DNA of 56,495 bases, the filler included, from Stramenopiles sp. TOSAG23-6 (Eukaryota), in assembly GCA_900128565.1 (NCBI GenBank). It is 4 parts of 4 records of this genome, joined end to end, with 100 filler letters (N's around TTAATTAATTAA, not from the genome) between each part and the next. Parts side by side here need not be neighbours in the genome. Positions count along the whole stretch, not along the records: positions 42,520 to 56,495 come from LT636151.1; 3 more parts are not named here. The stretch is one strand, 5' to 3'. The position numbers and the translations under genes are program-made. How positions within the stretch are numbered: the first letter of the stretch is position 1; each line of letters starts with the position of its first letter. Of this stretch, positions 391 through 56,442 are shown piece after piece. A model generated the notes under the pieces. The model was not told the origin of the DNA. It worked only from the letters and a program-made list of their open reading frames with translations, and did not search any database.

Positions 391-3300
391 ATGTCTGAAT
401 GGTTTCATAATCCAAGAGAAGAAGCAGCCAAAAGAGAGGCCGTAGCTAACGTTGTTGCTGCTACTTTGGCTCTCAGAGAAATAACAGAGTCTGTTTCATC
501 TCTTGACAACGCAGAACGTGACATCCCATGGATTGCCAAATTAGGAAGAGAGATCGTACAATCAATGATTGATTCTATTAAAGTTGGTAAAAATACCAAG
601 CGTTTTGTTGTAAATGGACTACGTGGTCTCGTTGATGAACTTGTCGAATTTCTCAAAATAATTCTTTGTAGAAAGCCTAACAATCAAGTTGCTTCGGGTG
701 GAAAGCCTAACAATCAAGTTGCTTCGGCAATCTTGACTGTCAGCGAAATTTTTTCATACCTTCACTTGGATGTGAGACAAAGCCATGATCGCGATGTTGT
801 GACTGAACTCGCCAGACTACTTACAAATGGTTTATGTTTTCTCTCCAAATCAAAAATGGAGGCTGAACATACAGAGAAGATCACCGAACATACAACTTTA
901 TCCCAGCATGAGCAAATCAATTCGGAACTTCAACTTTATGCTGAGACTACAGGTGGTATTACGATTGATATAAATACATTTCTCAAAGTAGGATCTATAT
1001 ACAATACCAACGAAATAGCCAAACAAAGATCAGAGACTCACGTGGAATGTAGCAACTTATTGATTAACTTGAGTTCCTTACTATTCTCTACTACAAATGT
1101 GACCCTCCAATTTCGAGTAGCGTTTCTCATTTGTACTCTTTGTCTTCAGATGTTTCCAATGACTAAAGGACAATCCAGTAAATGCCAAAAAAAAGATATT
1201 TTATGTTTATTTCAAAATTCAATGAATATGGATACTGCTGGTCAATCTATCGAATTCAATCCTGGTTCTCAAATTGTCAAATTATATGATTCGCAAAAAG
1301 ATGAAATCCAAAATAAGGAATGTGGTATTTATGATTTCGTACATAATACCAATATTTCAAAAAATGATATTTCTGTTGTACATTGTAATGCTGTAAACAT
1401 TTGCACACAAAACTCAACAACTCCGATATTTGNATCAAAAAATTGTCAAGAAGACGTTACAATTGAAGAATGTCATGCTCATTTTGGTACTTTTGATTTG
1501 TATTTTGTACCGTCAAGTTCTTGTCGTTTTGAACTAAGGAATGGACTACCCGCTCTAAATTATTTTGATGTATGGTTTATTTTTTTTTTCAATTTTAATT
1601 TTAATTTTTTTTTCGTACGGAATTTCGTACCTAACGATTGTTTTTGTGATTTTGTATTTTTTCACAACACATGATATTGCATATCTTGAATGGTCTAAAG
1701 AAAATAGAGAGATTGATATAATACTTCGTCATAACGACTTTTCGTTATCAAATCCTATTCTATCAAATCTAAGCACTCTACTTAGTGAAGATAACTCTCA
1801 TATTTCTATTCGACTACGTTTTGATGATCGCGAAGCATTTACACGTAATCTTACTACAATTCGTCGACATATAAATTCTAAATTGAGACCTCGTCAAAGT
1901 GTCTGTCAAAATCGTACGTACAACGTAGCAAGTAGTCTTGCTGCGGGAAATTGTTCTCAAATAATTGCAAATGGTTCCTCTTCAACAGATCCGAAAACAC
2001 CTCTTAATGTACGTTTTCATAATGAATTTAATTTTTTTTAGTTTGTTTTTGCATCATTCACTTCAATTATTAATTATTTGACAAAAATATTGTACTAAAC
2101 TGTTTAAAAATTTATTTTTTTTCACAATACAGCGATTGGAAAATAAACCCGACTCTGATGTACCCGACTCTGATGTACGTTTTCAATTTTTTTCTTAATT
2201 TTTCGTAGGAAATTTTGTACCTAACAGTTTTTTTTCGAAAAAAAAATTTTGAATTTGTTTGTTATTTTTTCGTAGAAAATTTTGTACCTAACAGTTTTTT
2301 TTTTTGAAAAAAAATATTTCTGACAAAATATACGAGTCCTAAAAGTATATTTAATTTTAAAGTAAGTACTGAAATTGAGTGTCAACCGATGATTAATTCT
2401 TCTAAATCTTCTGATCAAATCTCAAAAAAACAATTACATGTCGCGAATCATACTAGTAGTAGTAGTAGGCCAAAAGACCTCTGGAATCTCCGCGGAACTT
2501 TGACATCTGTAACATCAGTTTTGAATGATGCAAATGAAGCAGAACTTAAAGAAGCTTGTAAACAATTAGGATTAAATTCTAATTGTGAACAAAAAGATTG
2601 GATGATCTGTCGTATCCAGGTAGAATTAATAAATTGTGGGAATATTATCAGAGATGATCAAACTATTGTATGTTTTCATGGTTAATTTTTTTTTGCTACG
2701 AAATTTCGTATCTAACGATTTAAAACTAGTTGAATAATTTTAAATTTTGAGGATTTTTTTTCATACGAAATTTTGTACCTAAAAAATTTAATAAAAATAT
2801 ATTTTTCACACTACATGTAAGTGATATATATATAATGTATGCATGCTGATTTTTATTTCGTTTAATCGTATCTAACTTTTTCATCCATGTATCTTTCACA
2901 ACACAGGTATTAAGAAATAATCAAAAACAAGAAACACGAAATGTATCTGATCAAATACAACAAACACAAGATAAAAATAATCAAAAACAAGAAACACAAG
3001 ATAAAAATAATCAAAAACAAGAAACACGACATACATCTGATACTGGTCAATCTGGTTCTGCCCAAGTAGTTAATCTGCCACAGGGACGCCATGATTCGTA
3101 CAGTATATGTAATATTGATGGTGGTGATAAAATACCTCAGATTCCTGGACTTTCACCAAAAGACAAAAGCACATTATACGATTACAAAAAATGGTGGAAA
3201 AACTTGTCTGAAAAACAAAAAATAAAGATGAAATCCGATTATACAACGTTTTTATCAAATAAAGTCCTAATTCGTGCTAAAAAAGCGAGAATGAAACAAT

Positions 3301-9260: not shown

Positions 9261-12200
9261 ATGAGTATGAATAGTGAAAGTGGTTCCCTCTTTGAAGGTG
9301 GAGAAGATTCTTTATACACCTATGATGGGGATAGTTATGCTGACGAATATAATGATGATTCTAATAACGCAGATGATCTTGCGCTGATGGATTTAGGTGG
9401 TGGTATCGGTGTTTCTGATATATTTGGTACGGATATGGTAAAGAAGAAGAAACGTAAAAACAAACGGCGCTCTCTTTCAGATATAAAGGCAGAAGCTAGG
9501 CGCCGAGTGGAGCATAACGAAAGCAATCGTACTGTGCAGCTTACATCTTCTTTGAAAAAGGAGCGTCGAGAGACAGGAATATCTTCTACCGATGATGAAG
9601 ACGAGGAAGATAGAGAACGACAGGAATTACTGGCTCTTGAAGCTGAAGAGAAAAAACGTAAAATTGAGCTTGAAAACGAGGCAAAAAGAAAAGCTATGGA
9701 AGAAGAAAATGAAGCATCATTACAAAACACTCTTGGTTCACTTTCGTTATCTGAAACCGATTTTATTGTTAAAGCTAGTCAAGAACTCGTTGCTGATGGT
9801 AGGGATATAGATGAGAAGAACACCGACGACGTCGCAGATATACATGAAAATTCACCTGACGTGAAGGACACGTCATTTAATGCTAGTGGAACTGGTGGAG
9901 CAAGTCAATGGAGTGTTCGTGGGGGCTGTGGAGGAGGAGATGATAGTGGTTGGATGCTGTCAGATCAATTAAGTAATACAGGAGTTGTTCAACTAGGATC
10001 TCCTCAAGCAATTGAACTAGCAGAGTCCTCAGAATCAATAAGTGCTTCAAAAAATACGAATATGTCACCATCGGCTTCAACAAATCATTGGGATAATATG
10101 AAAGATGAAGGAGGATCAGATTCGAGTGATGATTTTGAGATTGATTCTGATAAAGAAAGTAAAGAAAAATTAACAAAAGATGATTTTGAGCTTGGTTCTG
10201 ATTCTGATAAAGAAAGTCTTAAACAACATACAATAGAAACATTAAAAACAGATACGATGGAATCAGTTGAATCTGAAAATGTTTCCTCACAGTCTCGTAA
10301 TACTGAAAATGATAAATANATTCAACACAGTGCTTCTGAAGATGGTGATGGATCTAATNTACATCAAAATCATGAATTCATGAAAAGTTTCACATCAGAG
10401 CAAAAAATGAAAATAGAATCATCAAATGATGATTTTTTTCATGAAAGTGAGTCAATGGACCTGACAACTGAAGGAAAGCAAGATATCACATTGAGTGCAC
10501 AGATCTTGAAACTTAATTCTGATATAGAAGAGGTAAATGATCCATTGAAGAAACACAAAGCTACAATGAGACAGGCTTGGGTTGAAAATAAAGAAGAATT
10601 AAAATCCCCAAAGAAGTCAAAGAAAGCAAAACGAATTGACATAAATTCTACCAAAAATGTAAAACGAAGAAAAAAAGTAAGACATCGAGGAAATAGTAAA
10701 AAACGAAGTATACGTAATAAATCAAATATTCGAAGGACCTCAAAAGAATACAGTACACATTCAATCCTCTCAAAGAAAAATGGGACAATAAAAGCAAACC
10801 AAAAAAAAAAAAAAAAAAATTTGAAATCGAGATCAAAAACAAAAACAAAAACAAAAAGCAGAGTAAACAGTCGGACACGACGTTCAAATCTAATTCCAAA
10901 AAGTGATGGTCGATCTCGACTTGCAGCCGTTCGTTCTTTGCAACCAAATGTATCCTACGACACAGATGTATGTTTTATTTTTATTTTTTTAAATTTGAAA
11001 TTGATTTTTTTTTCGTACGAAATTTTGTACCNAACAAATTTTTTTTTTATAGAAAATTTTTGAAATATTTTTCCAAAATACATGATGCAGCTGAAAAAGC
11101 TGAAAAAGAAGCATTTTGGTCCGCTATGCAGCAATCAATGTTATCGAGTCAGAAAAGCATGGAGGAAGCGAGTGATATATTACGTGGTAGTTCCCAAGAA
11201 GGATTTGGTACAATTATTTCCTCATTACAAGCTACTGTAGTTGCAAAAGAAAATGCCTTAGCTGCCGCTGAAGAAGCAATATTGTTACGCGATGGTGATG
11301 TGAGAAGACTAGAAGACGCGCTAGAACAAGCTACATCAAAAATCCAACAACAGGAATTGATTTTAAACGACGAAAAAAACTCATCCCAAATAACAGATGA
11401 ATCAAACCATAACCAAAAAGCAATAGAAGAAAAGACAAAATCTGAAATACAAAAGGAGATTATTGACTCTATAAGACTCACAGGAAACGAAACTGCAATT
11501 GAAAAAGTGAATCATTTAGAAAAAGAACTTGAACTTCAGGAGGTATTATTGAAAGGACTTCACACTGAAAATGAACGACTTGTTCAGAAAATGCGTGAAA
11601 ATGAAGAAAATTCGCGTTCTATGAGAGATGCAATGTTTCATGAAAGAAACAAACTCAATATTGAAGTAAATCAATTACGTAATGAAACTGGGACAAGTGA
11701 AACATTTAGGATGTCTCAACACGATTCTCCTGGCAGGGTCATGCATATTGCAAGTAATAGAAATGGTGAATTACTTCGACGAAATTTAGAATTAGAGACA
11801 TGTATTCAAGCAATGCGTGATGAGATGTCAGAACTGAGAGAACGTAGTGCAAGACGTCATGCAGAATTTCGTGAAGAAAGACGAATGTTAAAAGAAGAAC
11901 GACGACAATTGGAAGTTAAATTATCTGGTGTAAACGAAGATACAATAACTGCTATAAATAGTGAAGTAAAAGAACTTAGATCGAAACTTTCGATATCAGC
12001 AGCTCAGCATGCTGAAGAGGTGGCGATGCTTCAGGATAAAATTTCATTTCATGTTGAAAATGCAAAAATGGTTGATGAAAATAATGCCACAATTTCGAGG
12101 CAAGCTCAAGAAATTCGACAACTTCGTTCCCGAGTTCATTGTGATGAAGGTTTTGATCCAAATGTTGGGAATGGAAGTCGACATCGTCGTCGTCCTGGTA

Positions 12201-13344
12201 GTACATCAAATGGTAGAAATAATGTCAATGCAAAGCGAATTGCGTCATTAGAAAAGCAATTGAAGGAAGCCGAACAAGCGTTAGCGAGAAGATACCCAGA
12301 TTCTATTAGTAATTTAATACGAGCCGCTGGCCCATCTGAAGAGCAAAGGGATCAGCATACTCAACTTGTCGCAAAGGTCACAGAACTTCAAACTGAACTG
12401 GCAGATCGTAGTGACGCCGAGGAACGGAGATTACGTGCGTTGCGACAAGAGCATCATAAAGTGATCAACTTATTAGAGAAGAGATTAGAACGCCAAGAAC
12501 TTGCCGCTTCTGTGAATAATGTAGTACATCCAGGAAAGACGACTATAAAATCAAATAAAAGTCGAGTACGTGGAAAGTTTTCGAGAAATTCTGGGCACAA
12601 TGGTCCTGTATCCAAAGAGGATGAATTAGATCATGAGTTGGAGAGAGTGAGAACATTTTGGAAATCGAAAGTAGAATCACTTCAAAAACAGTTAGCTGCT
12701 GCTGGAGATAAATCTCGAAATAATGTTAATCATGCGATTGAAAATGATCAAAGGCAAAGTAATATAAATGTCACAAATAACAATGGACAAGAAAACTGTA
12801 TCCCACAAAGTGATATTAATGCTGCGACACAGAGAGCAATTAGTGCAGAAGCAGAAGTTAAACGTCTTTCAATTTTGTTAGAAAAAGGAGAATCAAATAT
12901 AATTTTCACAAACACGATGGAAAATACCTCAAAAATAAATTCTTCACAAAATGACGTTGTACAAACTGCACAAACAAAATCGTTCGATTCTGTACGTAAT
13001 ACATCGATACCTTTAACAATACACCAAGAAGCAATTCAAAAATTAGAAAGCCGATTAGCTGATAGTGAAAAATTACAACGGGAACTTTTGTCAGATTTGG
13101 CCGTATGTTTTATTTTTTTTTTAACAAAAAAATCGAATTTATTTTTCATACGAAATGTTGTACCTAACAAATTTAAGTTTTTTTTTTTTTGAAATATTTT
13201 TCCAAAATACATGAGAGGACCACAAATGAACAAGAACAGCTTTTGAGAATTAGAGCAGAACATAAACTAGAGCTTACTGAAGCAACAACGAAGCAAAATA
13301 AACAGTGGGCCTCTGCCCTTGCGGAATCAGAGAAAAAAACAGAT
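9261..13344 (+). CDS. CEP162: Centrosomal protein CEP162-like coiled-coil protein; exons 9261-10967, 11084-13102, 13213-13344; a further exon 13436-13615 is possible
   Basis: Motifs I recall from CEP162/QN1: LQEVLLKGLHTENERL, LQDKISFHVENAKMVD, IASLEKQLKEAEQALARRYPDSISNLIRAA. Frames join across the repeated introns. Confidence 0.7.
10968..11083 (+). mobile_element. Introner-like intron, GT...AT
   Basis: at|GTATGTTTTA...ttcgtacgaaattttgtacc(n)aac...ttccaaaataCAT|gat; in frame YDTD|DAAE; first downstream AG (+7) is out of frame. Confidence 0.85.
13103..13212 (+). mobile_element. Introner-like intron, GT...AT (in-frame AG at +3 possible)
   Basis: cc|GTATGT...gtacctaac...tccaaaataCAT|gag agg; gives SDLA|ERTTNEQEQLL. 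Confidence 0.8.
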
Positions 13345-13435: not shown

Positions 13436-14186
13436 TTTTTTCATTTGGAAAAATTTCTACAATTAATAGATAAAGACATGCAAAAAGAGTCCGTTCAATC
13501 AATTTTTAATCGCAATTTTCCACGTGTTATTTGTGAACCAGCAAATTTTTCCAGATATTCATTAAAAGATAAAAAAGACTCTTTCTCGGGAGGGGGAGGA
13601 AATCTTTGTGCATAATACATACATAGGCAATTGTATGTACTATATTAAATATTTGGCAATTAAAAAAAATATATTTTTTGAAAAAACATTAAATTTTTTT
13701 TTTTTTTTTTTGAAAAAAATCAAAACAAATTTAGGGTTTTACTTTAATTTTTAATGTTATCTCTCTCTCTCTTTCTCTCTCACTAAATGATTTACAAATG
13801 AAAAACTTGAAAAAAGTATAAATAATCTTCGGTACCAGACAAATTGAGAATAATGCGATCGCATTGAACACCAAATTGTATACAAATTACCCGTAGTAAA
13901 TATCATAGTATTAGGGTTAGGGTTAATATTTTGTAGGTGTGTAGTCAATATATCAAATACTCCTGAATATATTGTGAAAAATAGCCCAAATGTTTTGTTA
14001 TTTTGTTTGTTAGGTATAATTTTTTTTTTGTTTCAAAAAAAAAAAAAAAAAAAAATCAGAAAAAAAATAAAAAAAAAAAAAAAAAANNNNNNNNNNNNNN
14101 NNNNNNNNNNNNNNNNNNNNNNNNNNNNNNTTAATTAATTAANNNNNNNNNNNNNNNNNNNNNNNNNNNNNNNNNNNNNNNNNNNN

Positions 14187-28264: not shown

Positions 28265-28364
28265 NNNNNNNNNNNNNNNNNNNNNNNNNNNNNNNNNNNN
28301 NNNNNNNNTTAATTAATTAANNNNNNNNNNNNNNNNNNNNNNNNNNNNNNNNNNNNNNNNNNNN

Positions 28365-28446: not shown

Positions 28447-29848
28447 ACCAAGTTGGCAAGTTTTTCATCAATAAAGGAAGGAAGCATAGCTGTATTAATT
28501 GTAAATTGTTGCTTCCATACCTTTTCAGGTGATACCGATGGATTACTAGCGACAAAAAATTCACTGTAAGGATCAGAAAAAATTCCTACTTCGCACCAAC
28601 TTTTTAAACAATTAAATAAAGGTTTTGTTAGTGAATCTAATTGGCTCTGAACAAAGTTACTTACTGTTATATCACCGTGTTGCATATGTAGATATATAGC
28701 AGATGCAAGCGCCCCTCCATGTATTGTGAAAAATATTCTAAAAGTTTGGATTTTTTTGTTAGGTACGGAATTTTCATCGAAAAAAAAAATAAAAGTGTTA
28801 GGTACAAAATTTCGTATGAAAAAAATAAAAAAATTTGAAATTGATGATGAAAACGTACATGAAGTCCAATAGATGAATCGGCAATTATTGCCATCAAGCG
28901 CAAGCGATCAATTGGTGTTTGTAACCATATAAACAATCGTCGCAATGTCAATGAAAAGTGCTGTGGTTTTCTATTTTCTCCTTCTTCTTTTTTATTATTT
29001 TTGTTTTGTAAAGCATCGCGATTAACTTGAGCTTGAATTATCGCAATTAATCTATAAAATTCGCTTAACTCAGTTTTCAATGAAAAACATAACGCATTTT
29101 GACATAAACCTGAACGGGTATCTTTTTCACAATGTTCAATGAAATTACCGAGCTTCCTAAAGAGCCAACCACCTTCAGTGATTTTACGTATCAAAATTCT
29201 CGTAGGTTTTGGAACTCCAAAATTAGCGCATACGACATAGCCTCGCTCAGTAGCATCATACTTAATATACGTACCATCAATACCCTGAAGAACAAATAAA
29301 ATATCTCTTATCAATAATTGCTCAGATACTTCAAATGAAAAGTTTTTACCAACGTTGTAGTGAGTCTCAGAAAAATTAATGGTTTTTGTAGTTTTTCCAG
29401 GGGATTTTTCACAGTGATTACTAGATAATGATACATTTTCTTTTAATGATAATCCTAGACTCGGTTCTAGCAAACTTGGTTGAAATGAAGGAGGGGAATC
29501 TGAACTCATACTTTGAGAACCACGTAGTGCATGGAGAATCTGAAGTACTCCACTTTTGTTCTGAATGGCGCCAGACTTTCTGAATAAATGACATAGCTCT
29601 CGGAATTTCAATGGGACGCTCGTTTCATTACTATTAACTCGAGCAAGATAACGCTCTATTTTGATAGCCATTGTATCAATATCATTCCTAGATAGTATTC
29701 GTGAGTTGGTGGTTGAGGTTGAGCCTACAATACGCACGCAGTATTCTAATAAACTTGAATGCTTTTCTTCGTTATGTGGGCATATACTGGACACAAGTCG
29801 TCGTAATAGTAACGCAACCACTTCTTCTGGTCTAGCACTACGCTCCAT
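28447..29848 (-). CDS. TUBGCP3: Gamma-tubulin complex component 3 (Spc98 family), 3'-partial; exons 29848-28859 and 28718-28447
   Basis: EVSEQLLIRDILFVLQGIDGTYIKY, GLCQNALCFSLKTELSEFYRLIA, LTLRRL, GGALASAI...HGD, DPYSEFFV, MLPSFI match GCP3 grip motifs. Confidence 0.88.
28719..28858 (-). mobile_element. Introner-like intron with two cores, GT...AT
   Basis: Minus: cat|GTACGTTTTCATC...gtacctaac x2...cacaataCAT|gga ggg gcg; restores GLH|GGALASAI. AGs at -19 and +4 are both out of frame. Confidence 0.88.
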
Positions 29849-37160: not shown

Positions 37161-37502
37161 TATATTTACAGTGCAAAATCTGCACTTCAATACTTTTGGA
37201 GAGGCTGTAAGCTGTGTGTGAGTGTTTCGCGCATGGCGGTAAGGTCCTTCGGTCACTCACGCGTCAATTATTACTAATCGTAATATTCCATTTATTTTTT
37301 GATTGATCCTTGATTTTTTATTTCGTGTTTTTTGTTGCTGTCATGACTTTGTGACTTTCGTTCGTACTTCGTAGCTAATGAAAGTGAAACTATTACCTTT
37401 TCCTATCTAGCTAGGACTATAGTAGGTAAAAATAGTAAGTAGCTGCAATGCTGCACTTACAATAATACTACTAATACAATTAGAATGATAATATGCCAAT
37501 AA

Positions 37503-38034
37503 TCAGTAATTCTTTAAATACAGCAAAGTGATACGCAGAACGAGACGCATAGTGATACNNNNNNNNNNNNNNNNNNNNNNNNNNNNNNNNNNNNNNNNNN
37601 NNNNNNNNNNNNNNNNNNNNNNNNNNNNNNNNNNNNNNNNNNNNNNNNNNNNNNNNNNNNNNNNNNNNNNNCAGTAATTCTTTAAATACAGCAAAGTGAT
37701 ACGCAGAACGAGACGCATAGTGATACGCAGAGTAAAACGTATAGTGAGACGCAGAGCGACACGCCATGGGCGATACGCATAGCGAGACACAGACCGATAT
37801 ACAGAGCGAGACACATAGCGATACGTAGAGCGAGACACATGCCACTAAACAGTAATTCTTTAAATACAGCAAAGTGATACGCAGAACGAGACGCATAGTG
37901 ATACGCAGAGTAAAACGTATAGTGAGACGCAGAGCGACACGCCATGGGCGATACGCATAGCGAGACACAGACCGATACACAGAGCGAGGTACATAGCGAT
38001 ACATAGAGCGAGACACATACCAATAATCAGTAAT
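37503..38034. repeat. Tandem repeat, 178-bp unit built from degenerate 12-bp subunits
   Basis: cagtaat-initiated units at 37672, 37850 and 38028 (178 apart), a partial unit before the N gap, and subunits like atagcgagacac / agagcgagacac. Confidence 0.9.
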
Positions 38035-38990
38035 ACTTCAGATTCAGAGTGATACACAAAATGTACTGCAAAATACATAGTTATATGCACAGTGGGATTC
38101 ATTGTATAGGCACCAACCCTTAGAACTGGATTGGACAAGTTGTGAAATAGAAACCTCTGTTCATTGTATAGGCACCAACCCTTACAACTGGAAATACTCT
38201 ATCCATCATTTTTTTTTTCTCTTTTTTTTTTTTCGTAGATAATTTCGTACCTAAGTATTTTTTTTCTTCTTTTGGGCATCAGCCTTTACAATTGGACTAT
38301 CATAGGATCGCTATATTTTCCAGACAATTATACCCTAGTACACATCACTTTACAGTAGATACAGACCAAATGGACAAATGCTACTTCCTACACTTCTGCA
38401 CCAACTCTTTATTTATAATGGATCAGCTATGTGAATAGGGGCGGCTGAGGAAGGTAGGTCGGATTGTGTGAACCTCAGCTACAACCCTTTTTTTTTGAAT
38501 GTTGTCTATCAGTACAGGAATGACAATTTTACTCTTATGACTTGAATGTTATCTATCTCTTCAGATATGTCATTTGCAGTTCTTACTAATCGTGGGTATG
38601 ATACTGCAGCATGTGCCAATACATGGGCCAATTCAGTTTCATCACCTATATTTGCGATTTTGTAATTTATGATTATTGGCAATCAGTGGTGTTTCCATTA
38701 TTATATAGTCTGTAGTTTCATCTTTTTAAGATGTGATTATGGACATAAATATATTCCCTGGATTTACTTCTGATCTTTTTTTTTTTTCGTGAAAGGGGGA
38801 GTAACGAGATAGCTGTTTTTTGGCCATATTTCGTGTTTCGCAATGGACAAGGACCTCGCGCGGATTGACTCTTTTGTTTTCTTTTCATGTAATAAACTAT
38901 TTTTCCAGTATAACCATTTTAGTTGTTGCACTGTGATGACATACAACGAGAATTATTGTATATAAGAAATTCATTTACAATATTCAAACT

Positions 38991-39961
38991 ATGGTACTTG
39001 ATTTTGCAAGGTTGCGAAAGGAAATGAAAATGCAAAGGAAAAAAAAAGTTGAAGTCAAGCAGACTTCAACTCTTCTAGATGACTCCCTGACTTTCAATTT
39101 GGCATCACGCCGCCTTACAATTCCTGGCTGTAAGTATGAAGTATTTTATATACCAAACTTTTTGAATGAAAAAGAGAGTCAATTGGTAGACGCTGGAATT
39201 TTTGAATGCTCTGGTGTGTGGTCGACTCTATCCAATCGAGAACTTCTCAATTTGGGTGGTATTCCACATCCAAGTGGGATGATGGCAGATGAACTCCCTA
39301 ATTTCACAAAAGTCATTTGTGATCGTCTTGTCTCTTCAGGTATATTCCCAAGCAATTTATACCCAAACCAAATTCTTGTAAATAAATATACACCTGAGGG
39401 AGGAATTGCTCCACATCAAGATGGACCATTGTACTATCCTCAAGCTGCTGTTCTTTCTCTACGAAGTGCTTCTGTAATTCATTTTTGGACTTTACCAAAT
39501 GATAAATTTAAAAAAAATGGTTTTGAAGTTGTCGCAGACAAAGATCCTTTATTTTCTGTAGTATTAGAACCGCGTAGTCTATTAGTATTTAGCAAAGAAG
39601 CATATAGTAATCTTCTTCATGGAATTTATCCCGGAAATTCTCCTATTGTTGTAAACCCCAAAACATGTACGTTCATCATATTTTTTATTTTTTTTTCGTA
39701 CGAAAATTTGTACCTAACAAATTGTAACGTTTTTTTTGAAATATTTTTCGTAATACATGTAACTTGAAAGAACTTTACTGCAATCAACAAAAAATAAATA
39801 TATCTATTGGCGATGAAATAAAACGAAACAATAGAGTTAGTTTGACTTTTCGTACTGTCAAATTTGTAAAAAAAGAATCGAATGATTTTTTATCAGATGA
39901 AGAAAAATTTGAAAAAAAAAGGAGATGGAATTGGTGGTTAAGTTCAATTTCAGAAGACTAA
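38991..39961 (+). CDS. ALKBH6: AlkB-family 2OG-Fe(II) dioxygenase, ALKBH6-like; exons 38991-39666 and 39759-39961
   Basis: YIPNFL, NRELLNLGG, PNQILVNKY, PHQDGPLYYP (HxD), LEPRSLL, LHGI; terminal RVSLTFR lies in exon 2. Confidence 0.85.
39667..39758 (+). mobile_element. Introner-like intron, GT...AT
   Basis: at|GTACGTTCATC...ttcgtacgaaaatttgtacctaac...cgtaataCAT|gt; brings RVSLTFR into frame; the first downstream AG (+12) creates TAA. Confidence 0.87.
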
Positions 39962-42360: not shown

Positions 42361-42419
42361 GTATGTTTTATTTTTTTTTCAATTTCAAATTTATTTTTCG
42401 TACGAAATTTTGTACCTAA
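42361..42419 (+). mobile_element. 5' half of introner-like intron, truncated by gap
   Basis: at|GTATGTTTTA...ttcgtacgaaattttgtacctaa then N. Confidence 0.8.
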
Positions 42420-42573
42420 NNNNNNNNNNNNNNNNNNNNNNNNNNNNNNNNNNNNNNNNNNNNTTAATTAATTAANNNNNNNNNNNNNNNNNNNNNNNNN
42501 NNNNNNNNNNNNNNNNNNNTTTGTACCTAACAATTTTTTTTAGATTTTTTTGAAATATTTTTCCAAAATACAT

Positions 42574-42935
42574 GGGCAACCAAACTGCTCTTGAGCAAGA
42601 AATGCTGCTGGAAGCGGATATTAATAAAGATGTATGTTTTAGTTTTTTTTTAAACAAAAAAATCGAGTTTTTTTTTCGTACGAAAATTTGTACCTAACAA
42701 ATTTTAGTTTTTTTTTTTGAAATATTTTTCCAAAGTACAGGGCGTTCTTTCAAAAGAGGAGAAATTGAATTTTGTTAAGAAAAAGAGTAAGAGCATTGGA
42801 AGACGAAAAAAACGAAAGAAGAAATCAAAAAAAGACTTGTCCTTTGATTTTGATGATACAAGTAAAATGGTACTTTTAGGGGTTGGAGTAGCTACTGTTG
42901 CAATAGGTGTATTTTTTTATATGAAGAGACGGTGA
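42574..42935 (+). CDS. C-terminal exons of a tail-anchored protein (42574-42631, 42741-42935)
   Basis: Follows an AT acceptor at 42573; GNQTALEQEMLLEADINKD|GVLSKEE...MVLLGVGVATVAIGVFFYMKRR. Confidence 0.6.
42632..42740 (+). mobile_element. Introner-like intron, GT...AG variant
   Basis: at|GTATGTTTTAG...ttcgtacgaaaatttgtacctaac...ttccaaagtaCAG|ggc; phase 0. Confidence 0.85.
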
Positions 42936-43114: not shown

Positions 43115-43909
43115 ATGTCCCATCACCATCAATCTGGCTATGGCTCTCAAAATACCGGAAATTCATTAGGTAGTCGAAGTTGTATACGTCAAAGTAGAAC
43201 GTTTCGTCGTCTCGAATCGGGCAACGCAATGAAAGGTTTACTTGGACATGCTAACTTATCTTGGGATGAGAATAGAAAAGAAGGGGCATATTCTGGACAG
43301 GCTTTATATGACGCTGATAGAGGTATCAATGGGATGGACATTGGATTTGACAGAGGAGTGAATAAAAGACGACAAAATCAGTCACTTCACAATAAAAAAA
43401 AATCACAACAATGGAAAAAAGCTCCAATAGTCAGTGGTTTAGCACGAAAGAGATGGGAGGAAGAACAGATGGGGAAAGCAACTATATCTCTAGATATGGG
43501 AGGTGAATGTAAACATTCCGACATCCATTCAAGCATAGAAGTGAGGTCATTTGTTCCAAATAGTAAAAGTAATCTTTCAAATGCAAAAAACACGAAAAAC
43601 AAAAAAAACAAAATAGTGAAAGGTAAAGGACGTAGCGACGGAACTTTTGGTATTCATTCATTTGAAAACGGTGTTCAGTCTGCACCACCTAAAACACTCC
43701 TGGTAAAATGTGCAGATGAGACAAATAATATAATATCAAAGACTAATACTCAATCAATACCAATGAACCCTAACCCTAACCCTAATAAAAAAAAAATAGA
43801 AAAACCAGAACAAAGTCAAGTTACAACTGTTACACGAAATACACGAGTATCAAGAAATGGCAGTAGCAGATGGAGAACTTCAAATTCTACTTATGGTAAC
43901 CATATCTAG
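43115..43909 (+). CDS. Hypothetical basic low-complexity protein
   Basis: 264-aa ATG ORF; no domain recognised. Confidence 0.6.
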   Translation: MSHHHQSGYGSQNTGNSLGSRSCIRQSRTFRRLESGNAMKGLLGHANLSWDENRKEGAYSGQALYDADRGINGMDIGFDRGVNKRRQNQSLHNKKKSQQWKKAPIVSGLARKRWEEEQMGKATISLDMGGECKHSDIHSSIEVRSFVPNSKSNLSNAKNTKNKKNKIVKGKGRSDGTFGIHSFENGVQSAPPKTLLVKCADETNNIISKTNTQSIPMNPNPNPNKKKIEKPEQSQVTTVTRNTRVSRNGSSRWRTSNSTYGNHI

Positions 43910-44491
43910 AATTATATCAAGTATCAGGTAGCTGTGTAATCTAGTGTAATAGAACATTAGGGTTAGGGATACTTTGTTGACGTTTTTCAAATGTTTTTTT
44001 CGTACGAAATTTTGTACCTAACAATTTTTCAATAAAAGACACTATAACTATAGCAGTATTTACATTAAAAAATGATCTTTTGAATTTTTTTTTACATATA
44101 CAATATAATAAACATATTGTGTAATCTCGACAAGTAGTAGTAGACGCGACGCAAGCCACTAGTTAGCATTATTTTCGACTTACTATTTAGCAATCTCGAA
44201 AATTCTGAAAAGTATAAACCTGATAACTTCATTTTCAAATTTTCGAAATTTCGACTGGCGCTGGCTATAGCTAGGGTTAGGGTTAAATAAATATCCTTGG
44301 CGGCTAAACACAGACAGAGAGAGCGCAGCTGCATCTGGAGCGGTAATTACCAAAAGCAGCTGCGGGTGAGCGGTCCAAGTTCTTCTACCAACTCTGTAAT
44401 TAGATTAATGGTACTATAATTTAAAATTTCCATCGCAAATTACGTGAAGAGTTTGATCTTGTAAAGTGTAAATAAAAATCACTCAGAATTA

Positions 44492-46049
44492 ATGTGGAAT
44501 AACGGGACGAATGCACTTCCTGTAGATTTGAAGAGGCTAGATAACTTACGTAACTCTAAAGACCCTATGCTGCTGCTGCCGAAAAGTAGCCAGCAAGCAG
44601 CATGTAATAGTCTTGCTTGGATTGCAGAAATTGCCGATGAAGTAAGAAAGCAAGATTCGTCGACAATTACGTCAAATGCGTCAATAGCTGCGTTACAGAA
44701 TAATAAAACTGTTCCACGCGGGTTCAATCCAACTGAGTATAGTAGTAATTTCACGTATACACAAATGAATACACAACCTAAAGTACATAGACTTATACAA
44801 TCAAAATCACCCATACAACAACAGCAGTTTATGCCATCCCCGGAAGGTAACCATTCAAGTTATATAGGTGACGTATATCATACTGGAAATAATATAAATG
44901 CCGCGTATGCCTCTCATGGGCCTGGTCGTAATCAATCCAGGTACGAAAATAGTAATTGTTTGTCGAATAGCCCTAATAGAACAAATGCTTTGAATATGAA
45001 TAGATTACAATTTGCGCAGAATAATAATTCTAATTTTTTGTTTCCTAGGCGAATGACATCTCACCAGAGCATTGCGTTCCAAAATTCCAGTGCCTATGCA
45101 CAACAAGCTCAAATGAATCATTCCATGCCTGGGTACGTTTTCGTCATGAATTTCATTTTTTTTTTGGTACGAAATTTTGTACCTAACATTCTTGTTTTTC
45201 GAAATATTTATTCACAATACAGTTTGACAACTGGAATGACAACAGGATTGAAGCGCAAATTCATGGGGGACATTATAGACCCATCAATGGCAGACAGCAT
45301 GTGTGTTTTATTTTTTTTCAATTTCGAATTTTTTTAATATGAAATTTTGTACCTAACATTTTTAGTTTTTTTTTAAATATTTTTCCAAAATACATCCAAC
45401 GAAACAGAAAATTACTGAAACTATCTGCACCTCCACCACCCTATATGTCACAACAATCTAATTTAGTTTTTCCTAACCGTAACTTTTCAGGCCGAGTTGG
45501 AAACAATCAAATACAAAAAAGTAAAGCACCAGTTCGACGCCCACGGCCAAAAAAAGGCCCTTTAACTGCCGAAGAGAAGCTGAGACGTAAAAAGCAGCAT
45601 GCTGATGTTGAACGAAGGCGGAGTGCTCGCATTATTAGTTTATTCAATACCTTACGAAGAGTTTTACCATCGCAGAATGTATGTTTTANTTTTTTTCNAA
45701 NTCNAAANTTTTTTTTTTATAGTAAATTTTGTACCTAACGAATTTTTTTTTGAAATATTTTTTCAAAATATATGATTTGGAATACGTTGGTCCGGGTATT
45801 TCGGCGTCTTTAGTGAAAAAAAATGCAACACCGGTCAAGAAAAAAAAGAAACGGTCTAATGTGAATACAGTTGTTTTAGATAAGGTTTCCGTTTTGTCTC
45901 AGGCAGTGAATCGTATTAAAAAGCTGGGAGCTACACTGAGGGCAGCTGGCAAATTGGTAGTTTCTACTGTTACGTCTGATGGTGGTAAACCTACAGGGAC
46001 ATCTGGTAAACCTAACCCTAAACCTAATAAGAAGAAAGATAATAAATGA
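44492..46049 (+). CDS. bHLH transcription factor; exons 44492-45132, 45223-45300, 45396-45678, 45774-46049
   Basis: Basic/helix 1 RRKKQHADVERRRSARIISLFNTLRRVLP and helix 2 LDKVSVLSQAVNRIKKL are joined by removing 45679-45773; N/Q/S-rich N-terminus. Confidence 0.82.
45133..45222 (+). mobile_element. Introner-like intron, GT...AG variant
   Basis: gg|GTACGTTTTCGTCATGAA...gtacgaaattttgtacctaac...cacaataCAG|t; 90 nt. Confidence 0.85.
45301..45395 (+). mobile_element. Introner-like intron, GT...AT (in-frame AG at +12 possible)
   Basis: at|GTGTGTTTTA...gaaattttgtacctaac...ttccaaaataCAT|c; in frame with ORF 45445. Confidence 0.78.
45679..45773 (+). mobile_element. Introner-like intron, GT...AT
   Basis: at|GTATGT...ttttgtacctaac...ttcaaaataTAT|gat; first downstream AG is +40 and out of frame. 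Confidence 0.83.
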
Positions 46050-49435: not shown

Positions 49436-52400
49436 ATGCTAGTAGATGAAGACGGTAAAGACAACTCTATTGTAAATGAAGAGTCCAAGCCACTCTTGAG
49501 TAGCACCGACTCACAATTTAAAGAAAATACTAACGAAAATCAAACAGTAAAAAACGTTTGTTGGAATCGACATTATGTTATCATAATTCTCGTGACGTTA
49601 ACAGTTATAACTGCTATCTCTTTGGTAGTTGCACTTAAACTACAACCTACAAAAAAAAGCCCAAACAATGTAATTACTCCAAACAATGACGGGGGAGCTG
49701 AAGATAAAAGTTTTTTTGATCGAACAAATGAGGTGACTAGTTTAGTCCAGGGCACCCAAAACTATGTAAAGAAAGCTAAACGAGACGACCGCACTTACAA
49801 ATATATCACTCTATCTAATAAGTTAGAGGTTCTACTTGTCAGTGATCCTTCTACAGATGTTGCTGCTGCATCAATGTCAGTGGGTGTTGGGTCTCTTTGT
49901 GACCCTGAGCAATTTGCAGGACTTGCACACTTTTTGGAGCATATGCTTTTTTTAGGTTCGGAAAAATTTCCAAATGAAGACCAGTTTGCAAAGATAATCT
50001 CTCAACATGGTGGGTTTACTAATGCTTATACTGCATCTTCTGAAACGAATTATCACTTTAATATTGGCGAGCAATATCTTAAAACTGCGTTAAAAGTTTG
50101 GAGTCAATTTTTTGTATCGCCACTTTTGACAAAGAGTGCCATTGAGCGTGAAGTGAACGCAGTGAACAGTGAGCACGAGAAAAATATAAATAATGATGCA
50201 TGGAGATTCTCTCAGCTACTAAAATCTACTTCATCAGCATCACATCCGTATCACAAGTTCGCAACAGGTAATTTAGACACACTTTTGAAGTCTAATTCAA
50301 ACGATAATTTGGAAAAGGCTTTAAAAACTTTCTTTACACAATATTACGTAGCAAATAAAATGAAGCTTTCTATTTTAGGTAGTGAATCTGTGAATGATCT
50401 CCAAAAATATGCCAAAACACTATTCCAAGATATAAAAATGTCTGCTGATGATTCTGATTTCTGTTACTCTCCTTCGGTGTACGTTTTTATCCCTACCCTT
50501 AATTTCAAATTTATTTTTTTCGTACGAAATTTTGTACCTAACGAATTTTTTTTGAAAAAAAAAAATCCTTTTCACAATGCATCGTACGCGAGCCAGATAA
50601 GCTTGGAGTTCAATATATTCTTAAACCTATTGCAAAAAAGTATACTTTAGAAGTTTTTTGGTTCTTCCCGCTGATGCGTACTCATTTCAAAATCAAACCT
50701 TTAAGTTACATTGCAAGTCTTATGTATGTTTTATTTTTTTGAAAATTTGAATTTGTTTTCGTACGAAATTTTGTACCTAACAATTTTTTTTAGATTTTTT
50801 TTTGAAATATTTTTCGAAAATACATTAGCAATGAGGGCAAAAATTCTTTATTATCGAATCTAAGAAAGAAAAAGTGGGCTGATAATGTTGCAGCTAGTGA
50901 GGGGGATGAAGGTTATGATTACACTATATTTTCAGTGTATTTCTCCTTGACAGAATTAGGAGTTACAAAGGTTGACGAAATATTGCTTCTTCTTTTTGAA
51001 TTGATAGGTAAAATGCGCCAGGAGGGTGCTGAGGAATGGCGTTGGCGTGAACTTCAAAAGATATCACAATCTTCATTTGACTATCAAGAAAAAATGGATC
51101 CTTCTGATTATGTTGAATTTATATCAAATGCAATGCAACAATATCCAAGGGTTAATATTCTTACTGGTAGTTTCATTTTCGAAAATTATGAAGCTGACGT
51201 TATTCGTAATGCGATTGATATGTTGACCCCAGAGCGAATGGTTGTAATGGTTGGCGATCCAAGTAAAAAAGATGATTTTTATACAAAGGAAGAACATATT
51301 TATAAGACCAAGTATACGGATAATAATATACCCAAAGAGTTTCTTAAAAAACTCGGGAATGTATCAACCACACACACAAAATCCTTATCGCTTCCACTGG
51401 AAAATCAATACATTTCTACAGATTTTTCATTATCCCCTAATGTTCAAAAATATCATGATGAAAAAAGTCCTAGCACGGATAGTAAGAATTGCGATCAAAA
51501 TTCCTGTAGACCAAAGTTACTGGAGAGTCAAAGTCGTCACAGAGTTTGGGTTCGACCCGACCGTTACTTTGGAAACCCTCATATAGACCTAACGATCTTA
51601 ATTGACATGGGAAGGGGAGAGAAAAGAGAAGTTCAAGAAGTAGAAACTCCATCTGATAAAATGCGATTTAAAAGATCGGCTACCAGTGTATATACTGATG
51701 AAATGATGGAGGTTCAGGGAAATGACAGTAAAAAAGTAAATGTGAGCAGTAGCATTGTAGAAACAAAGAAGCTCTTACGACAAGAGTTGATTAAAATTAT
51801 TTATGCTAATGTGCTGTCACATGCGTTAGTAGAAAAAATGGCAGATGCTTCGGTAGCAGGATATTCAGTCGATTTCGATAGAACAAGCACTGGAGTTTCA
51901 CTGAATATTCGAGGATTTTCAGAAAAGTTTGACAAAGTTTTGAAAGAAACTTTAGATTTTATTAGAACTTTTCTTTCAAGCGAAGAAAACTTTGAAAACT
52001 TTGAAGAAATTGTACAGAGCATTACAAGAGGATGGGAAAATTTCCCCAAACAACAACCTTACGAAAAGGCATTGTTTTTGCTTAAATATACACTTCGAGA
52101 ACCTGTATTTACACCTGCCGAATTCCTACAAGAATTACATAAAACAGAGTCGGAATCTAAAATTAGTAATGGCAATGGCGATGAAAGTCCTTCCCCAGTA
52201 TCTTCTTCACTAAAAGCAGGTAATGTACCAGAATCTAAAAGTAGTAAAGACTCAGTAATACATGAACTAAAAAGCAGTGATGGAGGTCCCATAAGTCCAC
52301 CAAAAGGACCACCAAAAGCTAGGTTTAAAGAGAAACAAAGGCGGGAGAACAACGGTCGATTTCGTGCAGTGAAAACTCTTGCACCTACCGCCCCGAGTAG

Positions 52401-54302: not shown

Positions 54303-55805
54303 ATGGATTACTCGAAATGGGATAATCTTGACACTGGAAGTAGTGGTGACGATTCTGATGATGCGTATGGACGCTTGCCACCATCTCTACCCACATTTAA
54401 CGACACGTCGCTTTTGCAGTGTGGTGTTCAAGAGCGAAAAATTGGTCAGCTAGCAGTAGATGCCTGTCTGGAGAAGCTTGCTTCTGGAGCTGACCCAAAT
54501 AGCTGTAATAGAATGGGCCAGACTGCGTTGCACATTGCTGCCATCTGGGGTGGAATGGGAGTTGGGCGAACTCTACTCAAAGCTGGGGCTAATGTAAACG
54601 CTCGTAATATGATGCGTGGTTCAACGCCTCTTATGATGGCTGCTGGACGGGACCAAGCTGAATTTGCAAAGTTCCTTCTCGAGAACGGTGCAGACCCCAC
54701 GATGCGGGATACTTCCGGTCAATGTGCCTGGCAAATGGCTTCTGACGAGTCTCTTCGCATGCTTTTAGGAGGTCCATCGCCAGAGCTCACTGATGCGACT
54801 CTCGAAGGAAATCTTCAAAGGGTCAAAGACGTCCTTCGCCGCAATCCCGAGCTTTTAACCGTGCGCAATGGTGACGAAGAAACAGCCCTTACACTTGCTC
54901 TCAAAGAAAGACATTGGCCAATCGCTAGATACTTTATCAATCACCCTGACGCGGCATCTCTAATAAATTTAGAAGATTCAGACGGCGCATATCCTCTGCA
55001 CCTTTGTGTTCGTATGGAAAATCTCCCTCTTGTTGCTGAATTGCTGAAATGTGGTGCTGATCCTAACCAGAAAGCCTATCGTTATACTGAATATACCAGT
55101 GGTAGGTTTGATAAAATAGATAAGGCTACTGGAGAAAAGACGACTGTTTCAAACGAACATTGTACGCCCCTACTTGAATGTGCAAAAAATGGTAATATCG
55201 ATATTGCGAAGTTACTCATTCAGAGTCGATGTGACGTTGACGCGACAGATGGCGATGGATGTACAGCTCTTTATATCACGCTTGATGAATACGCTGATGC
55301 TCTTGATGATGATGAATCTGAATCTAAATCTAAAGATCGTATCGAGAAGAAAAAAGCGATGGCGGCTCTTTTGCTATCAAGTGGTGCATCCCCAAATATT
55401 GGTAACGCTTATATAGGCTACGATAATACACTTCTTGCTTGGGCATCATCGTCAAAAAATATTGAAGTTGTTAAACTTCTTTTACAATACAAAGCAGACC
55501 CAAATATTGCTGGGAAATCTGGAATGTACCCGCTTCATATGGCAACTCGTGTAAACTGTGTCCCAATACTACAATTATTATTGGAGGCTGGTGCTACGAT
55601 TGATGTAAAGAACAAAACAGGCCAAACTGCTTTATGTACTTTTTTTTTTTTTCACATTTTTTTTTCATATGAAATTTTGTACCTAACGATTTTTTTTTGT
55701 TAGTAAAAAAAAAATATATTTTTTCACAGTACATATCTATCCCAAACTTGTAAGAAGACAGATATTACAAACCTATTATTACAAGCAGCTGCCGCTCTTA
55801 TATAG
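54303..55805 (+). CDS. Ankyrin-repeat protein; exons 54303-55635 and 55735-55805
   Basis: Many repeats (GQTALHIAA, GSTPLMMAA, GAYPLHL, GMYPLHMA); last repeat GQTALYLSQTCKKTDITNLLLQA is completed by splicing; N-terminal MDYSKWD motif. Confidence 0.9.
55636..55734 (+). mobile_element. Introner-like intron, GT...AT
   Basis: at|GTACTTTT...gaaattttgtacctaac...ttcacagtaCAT|at; the CAG 5 nt upstream would break the ankyrin frame. Confidence 0.87.
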
Positions 55806-56442
55806 TTTTTCATTAGTGTATGGAAACAAAAATGACATTGGTATATTATTTATAAATAATAAGACCAAGTGCAATACAATGTGAAATGTCTTTTTAGGGA
55901 TAATATTTCGTGTCTTTTTAGGGATAATATTTCGTGTCTTTTTAGATGTAGAGTGATTTGCGTGAACTGTGTGAAACAATGTTGTAAGCGTGTGACTATG
56001 ATTCTATGAAATAATTTGTATGAGAGAAAATGTGGTGCGAGTGAGTGTGTAGTATTACGTGGTGTTTATATTTTGGAGTGTGTGTATATTTAAATTTCAT
56101 ACAAAATTTGAAAATTTCATAAAAAACATAAAAAAGAGCTAAAAAAGAAATGATTTCATTTCATATATATTATATGAATATTTCAAAAACAACGTTAGGT
56201 ACAAAATTTCGTACGAAAAAGAAATCGAAAAAAATATGGAACATGTTTTTTTATTTATTGTTTGTCCAGTTCAAATAATATTCGTTTTTACTTTTGCTAA
56301 CGTAACAAAATTTGTACCAAAATTTATCAATCAAGTAACAAAATTTGTACGAAAACATTTAATCATACATCTGACTTCACATACACCACTACATGCCTCA
56401 TTTTCGTACATCCATTCTTCTACATAATAATATCACATTGTC

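Follow-up and report, generated by a model that had tools for sequence, protein, structure and literature searches.

The focal intron and its core

The DNA analysed here (the window) is a stretch of 56,495 nucleotides, filler included, and the intron that holds the motif under study occupies positions 42632..42740 on the + strand (109 nt, GTATGT...TACAG). With this intron taken out, the frame is open and reads ...DINKD|GVLSKEE..., and the retained upstream AT completes the Asp of what we take to be a DxNxDG EF-hand-like loop. This intron is among the few AG-ending members of a large family. The exonic AT and donor GTATGT (42630..42637, + strand) are complementary to the 5' end of a variant U1 RNA (see below), while the acceptor dinucleotide (42739..42740, + strand), AG here and AT in most copies, stands at the position of the second target-site copy.

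The core lies at 42673-42698 and reads TTTTCGTACGAAAATTTGTACCTAAC, one base off the consensus quoted in an earlier note on this DNA. That note described a perfect 12-bp palindrome overlapping a near-palindrome next to a branch-like TACCTAAC, all of which were located (42674-42685, 42678-42693 and 42691-42698, respectively), and flanking T tracts that vary in length, which was borne out. The 12-bp palindrome, TTTCGTACGAAA (42674..42685, without strand), is an inherited part of the element that is not conserved after insertion; the near-palindrome, GTAC-N-AAAWTT-Y-GTAC (42678..42693, + strand), is a weak possible hairpin without covariation; and GTACCTAAC (42690..42698, + strand) is a putative branch site, the branch A most likely being 42697. 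The core itself is a loose dimer of the 12-bp unit TTTYGTACSWAA.

In the window the palindrome has 18 matches at ≤1 mismatch (0.29 expected) and TTTTGTACCTAAC has 30 at ≤2 mismatches (2.44 expected). The exact 22-mer has 2351 matches in the 21.1-Mb assembly (G000), its reversed pattern has none, and the branch half plus TACAT has 4001; these genome-wide counts are approximate, as some contigs are duplicated and contigs often break within the element. A related motif, ATCCGTACCAAATTTCGTACC, occurs outside family introns (L092:9518-9570, L102:8390 and L040:9213; once in tandem) and has seven exact matches in the assembly. CCTAAC is also contained in the telomere-like CCCTAA/TTAGGG repeat, runs of which were seen at window 43770-43787, 43960-43970 and 44275-44287 and in L036, in intergenic and intronic sequence as well as inside ORFs.

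On the + strand of the window, family introns flanked by AT/AT are found at 1570..1672, 10968..11083, 39667..39758, 45301..45395 and 45679..45773, the last two with palindromes decayed to AATATG and TATAGT, respectively; 13103..13212 is flanked by CC/AT and 45133..45222 by GG/AG. An M16 peptidase gene carries two, at 50479..50582 (+, GT/AT) and 50724..50825 (+, AT/AT). The member on the - strand, 28719..28858, is flanked by AT/AT and has two tandem cores. A further AT/AT copy (55636..55734, +), near the end of an ORF that by eye is ankyrin-repeat-like, failed the 40-codon frame test used below, and the core of yet another (42395..42420, +) runs into an assembly gap. Perfect cores without intron ends lie at 43997..44022 (+, intergenic) and 56194..56219 (-); such end-less cores were seen at window 6549, 13375, 17987, 43997 and 56194 and at other loci. 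Among those flanked by long ORFs on both sides, 11 of 23 lie between convergent genes, and end-less cores may be 3'-UTR insertions or a 3'-end motif.

An intron family with 2-bp target duplications

The sample analysed comprised the window and 80 stretches of the assembly, in all 856 kb. A core scan at ≤6 mismatches gave 345 distinct matches in this sample, compared with 2 in the reversed sequence. Of these 345, 259 are copies that have both ends, 11 fall at the edge of a contig and 75 belong to neither group. The 259 full copies are spread over many unrelated Pfam families, that is, look-alike introns are present at unrelated gene positions. Their layout is GTAYGTTTT...core...AATAY followed by two bases, with a median length of 97 nt, and the longest ORF nearby runs in the direction of the element in 231 copies and against it in 15 (259 examined).

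The dinucleotide that precedes the GT recurs at the end of the copy; this is a 2-bp target duplication of the type made by DNA transposons. Among 196 clean copies, 125 have AT/AT flanks. Of the 60 left dinucleotides other than AT, 20 are found again on the right, where 2.0 would be expected and 10,000 shuffles gave 9 at most; TT, GT, CT and AG are duplicated too. A 3-bp target duplication received no support (p=0.11). The terminal inverted repeat is restricted to GTAT/ATAC, or 6 nt if the AT is counted; a repeat of at least 6 nt is not universal among introners.

When the element is taken out together with two further nucleotides, 198 of 258 copies have 40 or more open codons on both sides, compared with 32 at +0 and 26 at +1. 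The acceptors of these 198 frame-supported copies are AT (165), TT (9), AG (8) and GT (7), so that the AG-acceptor rule of U2-type introns fails in this family, AG ending 8 of 198. The final triplet is CAT for 141 of the 198 and TAT for 23, behind T-rich tracts, and AT is most commonly preceded by C and followed by G. Use of the next downstream AG was rejected: it is in frame in only 57 of 190 copies, and 14 of the 190 have an in-frame AG no more than 6 nt away.

Some further features of the copies and their surroundings were recorded. Cores are duplicated in tandem within 95 nt, mostly inside one intron (window 2200-2292, 2691-2783 and 28758-28822, and 11 more pairs), and assembly gaps with a TTAATTAATTAA linker lie inside family copies (window 14087-14186, 28265-28364 and 42420-42519). 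By eye, the 73 exon lengths measured from one insertion to the next reveal no clear nucleosome periodicity. A tandem-repeat-like stretch with an N gap (window 37480-38040) is located upstream of the CPSF73 gene. For Ras-family genes (L055-L084), most strong matches have no intron in the GTPase domain and a few have GT-AG introns (L069, L070 and L080); one candidate has TACTAAC adjoining AG. Apart from the GT-AT family the genome looks intron-poor. The closest named relative of a window protein has a MAST-3-style label (89% identity) and the host is therefore probably an uncultured marine stramenopile, MAST-3-like.

Removal of family introns in RNA

Contigs of four seawater metatranscriptome runs were aligned to L099:1-9700, a region with four family introns. 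Exactly 96 nt, corresponding to the family intron in the urocanase gene, are skipped in RNA contigs of runs X4 and X5 (one study), and exactly 99 nt, the family intron in the Rab gene, in contigs of X4; for the GT-AG control intron 124 nt are skipped (X4). Neither of the two skipped family introns has an equivalent cut that would end in AG, and the RNA of a TT/AT copy retains the upstream TT, which excludes a cut slid back by two bases. These two exact RNA joints without AG accompany the 2-bp duplication and the frame restoration in the family. They cover two of the four family introns of L099:1-9700, with none in runs X1 or X2, and among the RNA contig joints listed (contigs only) none was a lariat joint branched at the predicted A. 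The joined forms could conceivably come from an intron-less allele in the sea.

In two of the RNA runs hundreds of contigs hold the element with other flanks, which implies unspliced RNA or family-carrying DNA in those libraries. The shares of the query that the runs match are small (0.09-0.16), hence the runs are uninformative on habitat.

Spliceosomal RNAs and splicing factors

The U5, U2, U1 and U4 genes are arranged head to tail within 640 bp (L054:9-645; G000:C1146), with U6 elsewhere. U2 carries the standard GUAGUA, U6 has ACAGAGA and U5 the usual loop, and the GT donor and YTRAY branch consensus of U2-type introns are present along with U1, U2, U4, U5 and U6. Searches of the incomplete assembly gave no match to U12 and U6atac genes at E≤1. 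Minor (U12-type) introns have the donor consensus RTATCCTT and the branch consensus TCCTTAAC; the donors of the family, GTATGT/GTACGT, and its branch, TACCTAAC, depart from both.

The U1 gene begins AAACGUACAUGG, where the Rfam consensus has AUACUUACCUGG; the only U1 sequence found thus starts ACGUACAUG instead of ACUUACCUG and is complementary to CAU/GUACGU. It is represented by two identical matches with an E value of 8e-12 and 54 bits, which is below the Rfam cut-off of 69.5. One of the two 5'-end changes faces donor position +4 (C/T in the family) and the other exon position -1 (T in 180 of 198), and together they are predicted to pair with U/GUAY: the variant U1 would form 7.3 Watson-Crick pairs per donor compared with 6.0 for the standard one, and would fit 174 of 178 donors better. 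We infer that the variant is the working U1; a standard copy could be unassembled. Since a GT-AG intron outside the family also carries GTACGT, the +4 change may predate the family. As far as the accessible part of the source goes, lineages with C/U at donor +4, such as Thecamonas, Mamiellales and 69 yeasts, mostly keep the standard U1 (10.1101/2022.06.08.495308).

Turning to the protein factors, Slu7, Isy1 and Prp8 were found, while Prp18 and Cactin were undetected in the incomplete assembly (searches made without a positive control genome) and none of 15 CCCH matches was, by eye, a U2AF35-like ORF. Prp18, Cactin and U2AF35 are linked to 3' splice-site recognition. That they were undetected is a lead only as to the cause of AU acceptance, as a gene missing from an incomplete assembly proves nothing. 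According to the part available to us of a yeast study (PMC10711555), the non-G acceptors used best without Prp18 are CAU and UAU, which rely on poly(U) tracts.

Conservation of the core

The earlier note held that the core, and not the ends, is the best-conserved part of the family and a selected cis signal. This applies to the branch half, which is the best-kept block, but not to the palindrome, which is the worst kept. In 255 gap-free full copies the mismatch frequency at G/C positions is 0.283 in the palindrome and 0.051 in GTACCTAAC, and at A/T positions 0.038 and 0.006, respectively. When copies were found by their ends alone (n=188), CCTAAC was intact in 156 and TACCTA in 164, compared with 84 for CGTACG and 64 for the 12-bp palindrome. 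When they were found by the branch half alone (n=315), CGTACG was intact in 107, and a perfect donor hexamer was present in 192 and a perfect 3'-end hexamer in 176, numbers that include some chance matches, both hexamers having been sought over a window. The reversed-window control is unusable for donor hexamers because TGTATGT reads the same backwards.

The more a copy diverges outside the core, the more mismatches its palindrome has (rho 0.34, p 3e-8), and 52% of the least diverged copies but 10% of the most diverged have a perfect palindrome; mismatches in the branch 9-mer show no trend (rho 0.10, p 0.11). CTAAC is intact in 226 of 255 intron copies and in 13 of 39 end-less copies (p 6e-13), a pattern that would be expected of a branch site. 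The YTRAY branch consensus is present in 239 of 255 copies and GTACCTAAC sits 32-50 nt from the intron end. Only GTACCTAAC is held by selection, CTAAC in intron copies only. The palindrome is not maintained, its G/C positions (kept in approximately 72%) being no better kept than G elsewhere in the element (107 of 131).

Genome-wide CpG depletion was discarded as a cause of the decay, CG being at 0.9 observed/expected in the sample and many of the changes being transversions. The inner palindrome positions are jointly intact more often than in shuffles (170 vs 145 for positions 5-10, 153 vs 129 for positions 6-9), which copy age can explain, as may selection. T19-A20-C21 of the core are as invariant as CTAAC, the GTAC beside CTAAC persists in 33 of 39 end-less copies, and the core has collapsed to TACTAAC in none of 188 copies, though TACTAAC pairs better with U2 (-5.0 vs -2.8 kcal/mol). 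Something beyond simple U2 pairing may therefore hold this GTAC.

Interpretation and alternatives

The reading that we favour, with a probability of roughly 0.7, is that the core is the middle of an introner and consists of a branch site and a decaying inherited palindrome, the intron being removed as GT-AT. A non-coding DNA element would insert with a 2-bp target duplication, mostly of AT, and the RNA would be cut at the GT that the element brings and again just behind the second target copy; removal through this second copy would make most introns GT...AT and leave the mRNA unchanged. GTACCTAAC would be read as branch site by an ordinary U2, the extra C being bulged or tolerated. The palindrome would be inherited sequence and at most a DNA site used in copying. 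It is of little importance in itself, what matters being the system around it. AU acceptors may pass, tentatively, through a relaxed check of the last base combined with a U-rich tract that positions YAU, as in yeast without Prp18.

We consider a broader version unlikely, namely that an invading element retuned the major spliceosome: in U1 a G would have arisen opposite +4 and, opposite exon -1, where the AT duplication ends, an A; the AG check would have been dropped (Prp18, Cactin and U2AF35 being undetected), giving mostly GU-AU introns; and the dyad would be a copying site of Harbinger-like proteins. The last part can also be taken alone. GTAC-AAATTT-GTAC may be a DNA site for mobilising proteins, e.g. 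a Myb-like protein that acts with a PIF/Harbinger-type transposase; it would have to be intact in donor copies and would decay after a copy has become fixed. Although we would not expect this to hold, it is compatible with the favoured reading. The loss of perfect palindromes with divergence agrees with it, but any inherited sequence shows the same age trend, and decay after insertion agrees as well with plain inheritance as with a copying signal. The GTAC halves persist in end-less copies, but end-less cores are common between convergent genes anyway.

Two PHIS-type transposase loci are present in the genome. One (L140:3-2769; G000:C2432, identical in C2433, C2439 and C2440) has convergent ORFs, Plant_tran/DDE_Tnp_4 and NAM/Myb-SANT-like, and in the spacer of this two-gene Harbinger-like locus is a near-consensus core, part of a compact 45-nt CAT/GT...core...AT copy; a possible end, CCGGCC-TAA, lies near L140:2915. 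The other (L139:389-1648) is a second DDE_Tnp_4 transposase-like ORF of 420 codons with no core nearby. A Myb-like protein of Harbinger has a subterminal motif of 9 bp as its binding site (PMC9710019, in part), and ISL2EU elements duplicate AT, as the family does (PMC4482050, in part). Against this, L140:900-2950 shares only 35-43 nt around the core with other sites, the termini are GT..AC and not GG, the duplication is 2 bp and not TWA, and the context is Y-AT-G instead of the A/AT/T given for PHIS transposons (ISL2EU, PIF/Harbinger) in the accessible part of PMC4482050; no transposase with ends matching those of the family was found at the transposase loci seen. The Harbinger-like locus is at most a candidate partner of the family: within L140:900-2950 the sharing is limited to the core region, and neither the 3-bp TWA duplication nor the common ends of PIF/Harbinger were seen.

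Somewhat less probable still is that the GTACG in the palindrome acts as a decoy donor for the variant U1, so that the palindrome decays faster than neutrally. TTC/GTACGA would pair with the variant U1 at -6.6 kcal/mol compared with -3.0 after G6A, which is the commonest change (80 of 255), and C5T, expected to make the decoy stronger, was counted in 3 of the 124 copies that have GT..G intact and in 38 of the 135 that do not. These frequencies are confounded with copy age and subfamily, however, and the retention of G elsewhere in the element is close to that in the palindrome.

The earlier note proposed that the AU acceptor is licensed by a signal joined to the branch point, such as a hairpin or a site for a factor or a variant U2. 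This is largely refuted, and we regard what is left of it as improbable. The near-palindrome can form a 6-bp stem, GUACGA/UUGUAC, with a predicted -4.4 kcal/mol alone and a mean pair probability of 0.33-0.41 in whole introns; it leaves CUAAC open, and T17C perfects it in some copies. Yet none of its eight pairs shows excess pairing (n=255), all six outer hairpin pairs are kept in only 108 of 255 copies, with 3 double changes in all, and the pairing probability of the 12-bp palindrome in RNA is 0.02. The fold of the focal intron is not better than chance (z -1.37; 20 of 200 shuffles as good).

A loose genome-wide count did give a difference, with the palindrome half intact in 1179 of 4001 AT and 67 of 286 AG matches (p=0.03), but approximately 1/4-1/3 of the AG matches listed are by eye other-ended copies followed by exonic TACAG. 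With matched 3' ends it is intact in 618 of 1876 AT (33%) and 12 of 39 AG copies (31%; p=0.86), and the 197 AT- and 11 AG-ending copies of the 856-kb sample show no palindrome difference. Moreover, AT introns without the palindrome restore the frame (window 45301 and 45679) and the RNA-joined 96-nt intron carries GATACG. A variant U2 did not emerge, as both U2 matches score alike and L051 reads GUGUAGUA, which is standard; nor is any of the snRNAs complementary to the core above shuffles (U1 61/300, U2 94/300, U4 128/300, U5 133/300, U6 249/300). That the palindrome licenses AU acceptors is thus not supported, and both results that the note had named as speaking against its idea, conservation no better than elsewhere in the element and the same decay whether copies end in AT or in AG, were obtained for the palindrome.

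Removal by something other than the major spliceosome (as U12-type/AT-AC introns or by another enzyme's cut), or absence of the copies from expressed alleles, is the least probable alternative: for AT/AT copies the mRNA would come out the same if the cut were AT...AC, TACCTAAC is similar to the branch site of minor introns and the RNA evidence is from contigs, but the TT/AT copy keeps its upstream TT in RNA, the GTAYGT donors match U1 and U6, U12 and U6atac were undetected in the incomplete genome, and the longest nearby ORFs follow the strand of the element.

Relation to known introns and elements

With the favoured introner reading, the family shares with the introners of Micromonas, Aureococcus and Chrysochromulina type the thousands of look-alike short introns and the target duplication (PMC9860276 and PMC11282704, in part), and with the Chrysochromulina type also that the element brings the 5' splice site and the duplication gives the 3' site, leaving the mRNA length unchanged (PMC9860276, in part). 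It differs from the accessible parts of these accounts in that the 2-bp, mostly AT, duplication gives an AT acceptor (also TT, GT and CT) and not AG, in that the inverted repeat is only GTAT/ATAC, and in the matching U1 change, which is not among them (PMC9860276, PMC11282704). It shows the introner features of look-alike introns at unrelated gene positions, target duplication and frame-restoring removal that is seen in RNA, and it breaks the AG rule; the interest lies in the AT ends and the U1 change and not in the palindrome.

Similar in their ends are the U2 introns of Fritillaria borealis and F. pellucida, which in the consulted part of the report mostly have non-AG ends, 3' AT being common, and a YAY triplet both before the donor and at the acceptor (PMC13326754); the non-canonical Fritillaria introns are of transposon origin (PMC11282704, in part). 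Their donors, however, are often AG, and they have adapted through duplicated U2AF and through m6A on U1, whereas here we find GT donors, one sequence family, a fixed branch site and an altered U1 gene sequence (PMC13326754, in part). Entamoeba, Mastigamoeba and Physarum likewise have a U1 5' end altered to fit an atypical donor, but here one change fits a +4 Y and the second an exon -1 U, with which the target duplication ends (10.1101/2022.06.08.495308, in part). Yeast without Prp18 also uses CAU/UAU acceptors behind U-rich tracts, and a G+1/U-1 contact has been proposed; there these are minor errors in a mutant, while here they apparently are the main route (PMC10711555, in part).

No report of GT-AT introns or of an altered U1 in MAST lineages turned up in the openly searchable literature; the main text of PMC8163842 does not mention introns, and the part of the PMC9860276 supplement at hand has no MAST entry and no GTACCTAAC.

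An AG at the intron end is among the firmest rules of splicing, and one copied family appears to break it thousands of times. With standard U2, U5 and U6 kept, this lineage offers a natural test of which proteins (Prp18, U2AF35, Cactin) enforce the AG. The U1 gene bears on the co-evolution of snRNAs and splice sites, for which few cases are listed in the accessible part of 10.1101/2022.06.08.495308. On the practical side, gene models that assume GT-AG are wrong for this lineage.

In the JGI metagenomes the exact 22-mer had 0 matches and a degenerate pattern 5, of which 2 have element context and 3 are apparently chance. Two public metagenome contigs carry the element; the copy in L144 is without the usual 3' end and that in L148 is complete, with AT/AT flanks.
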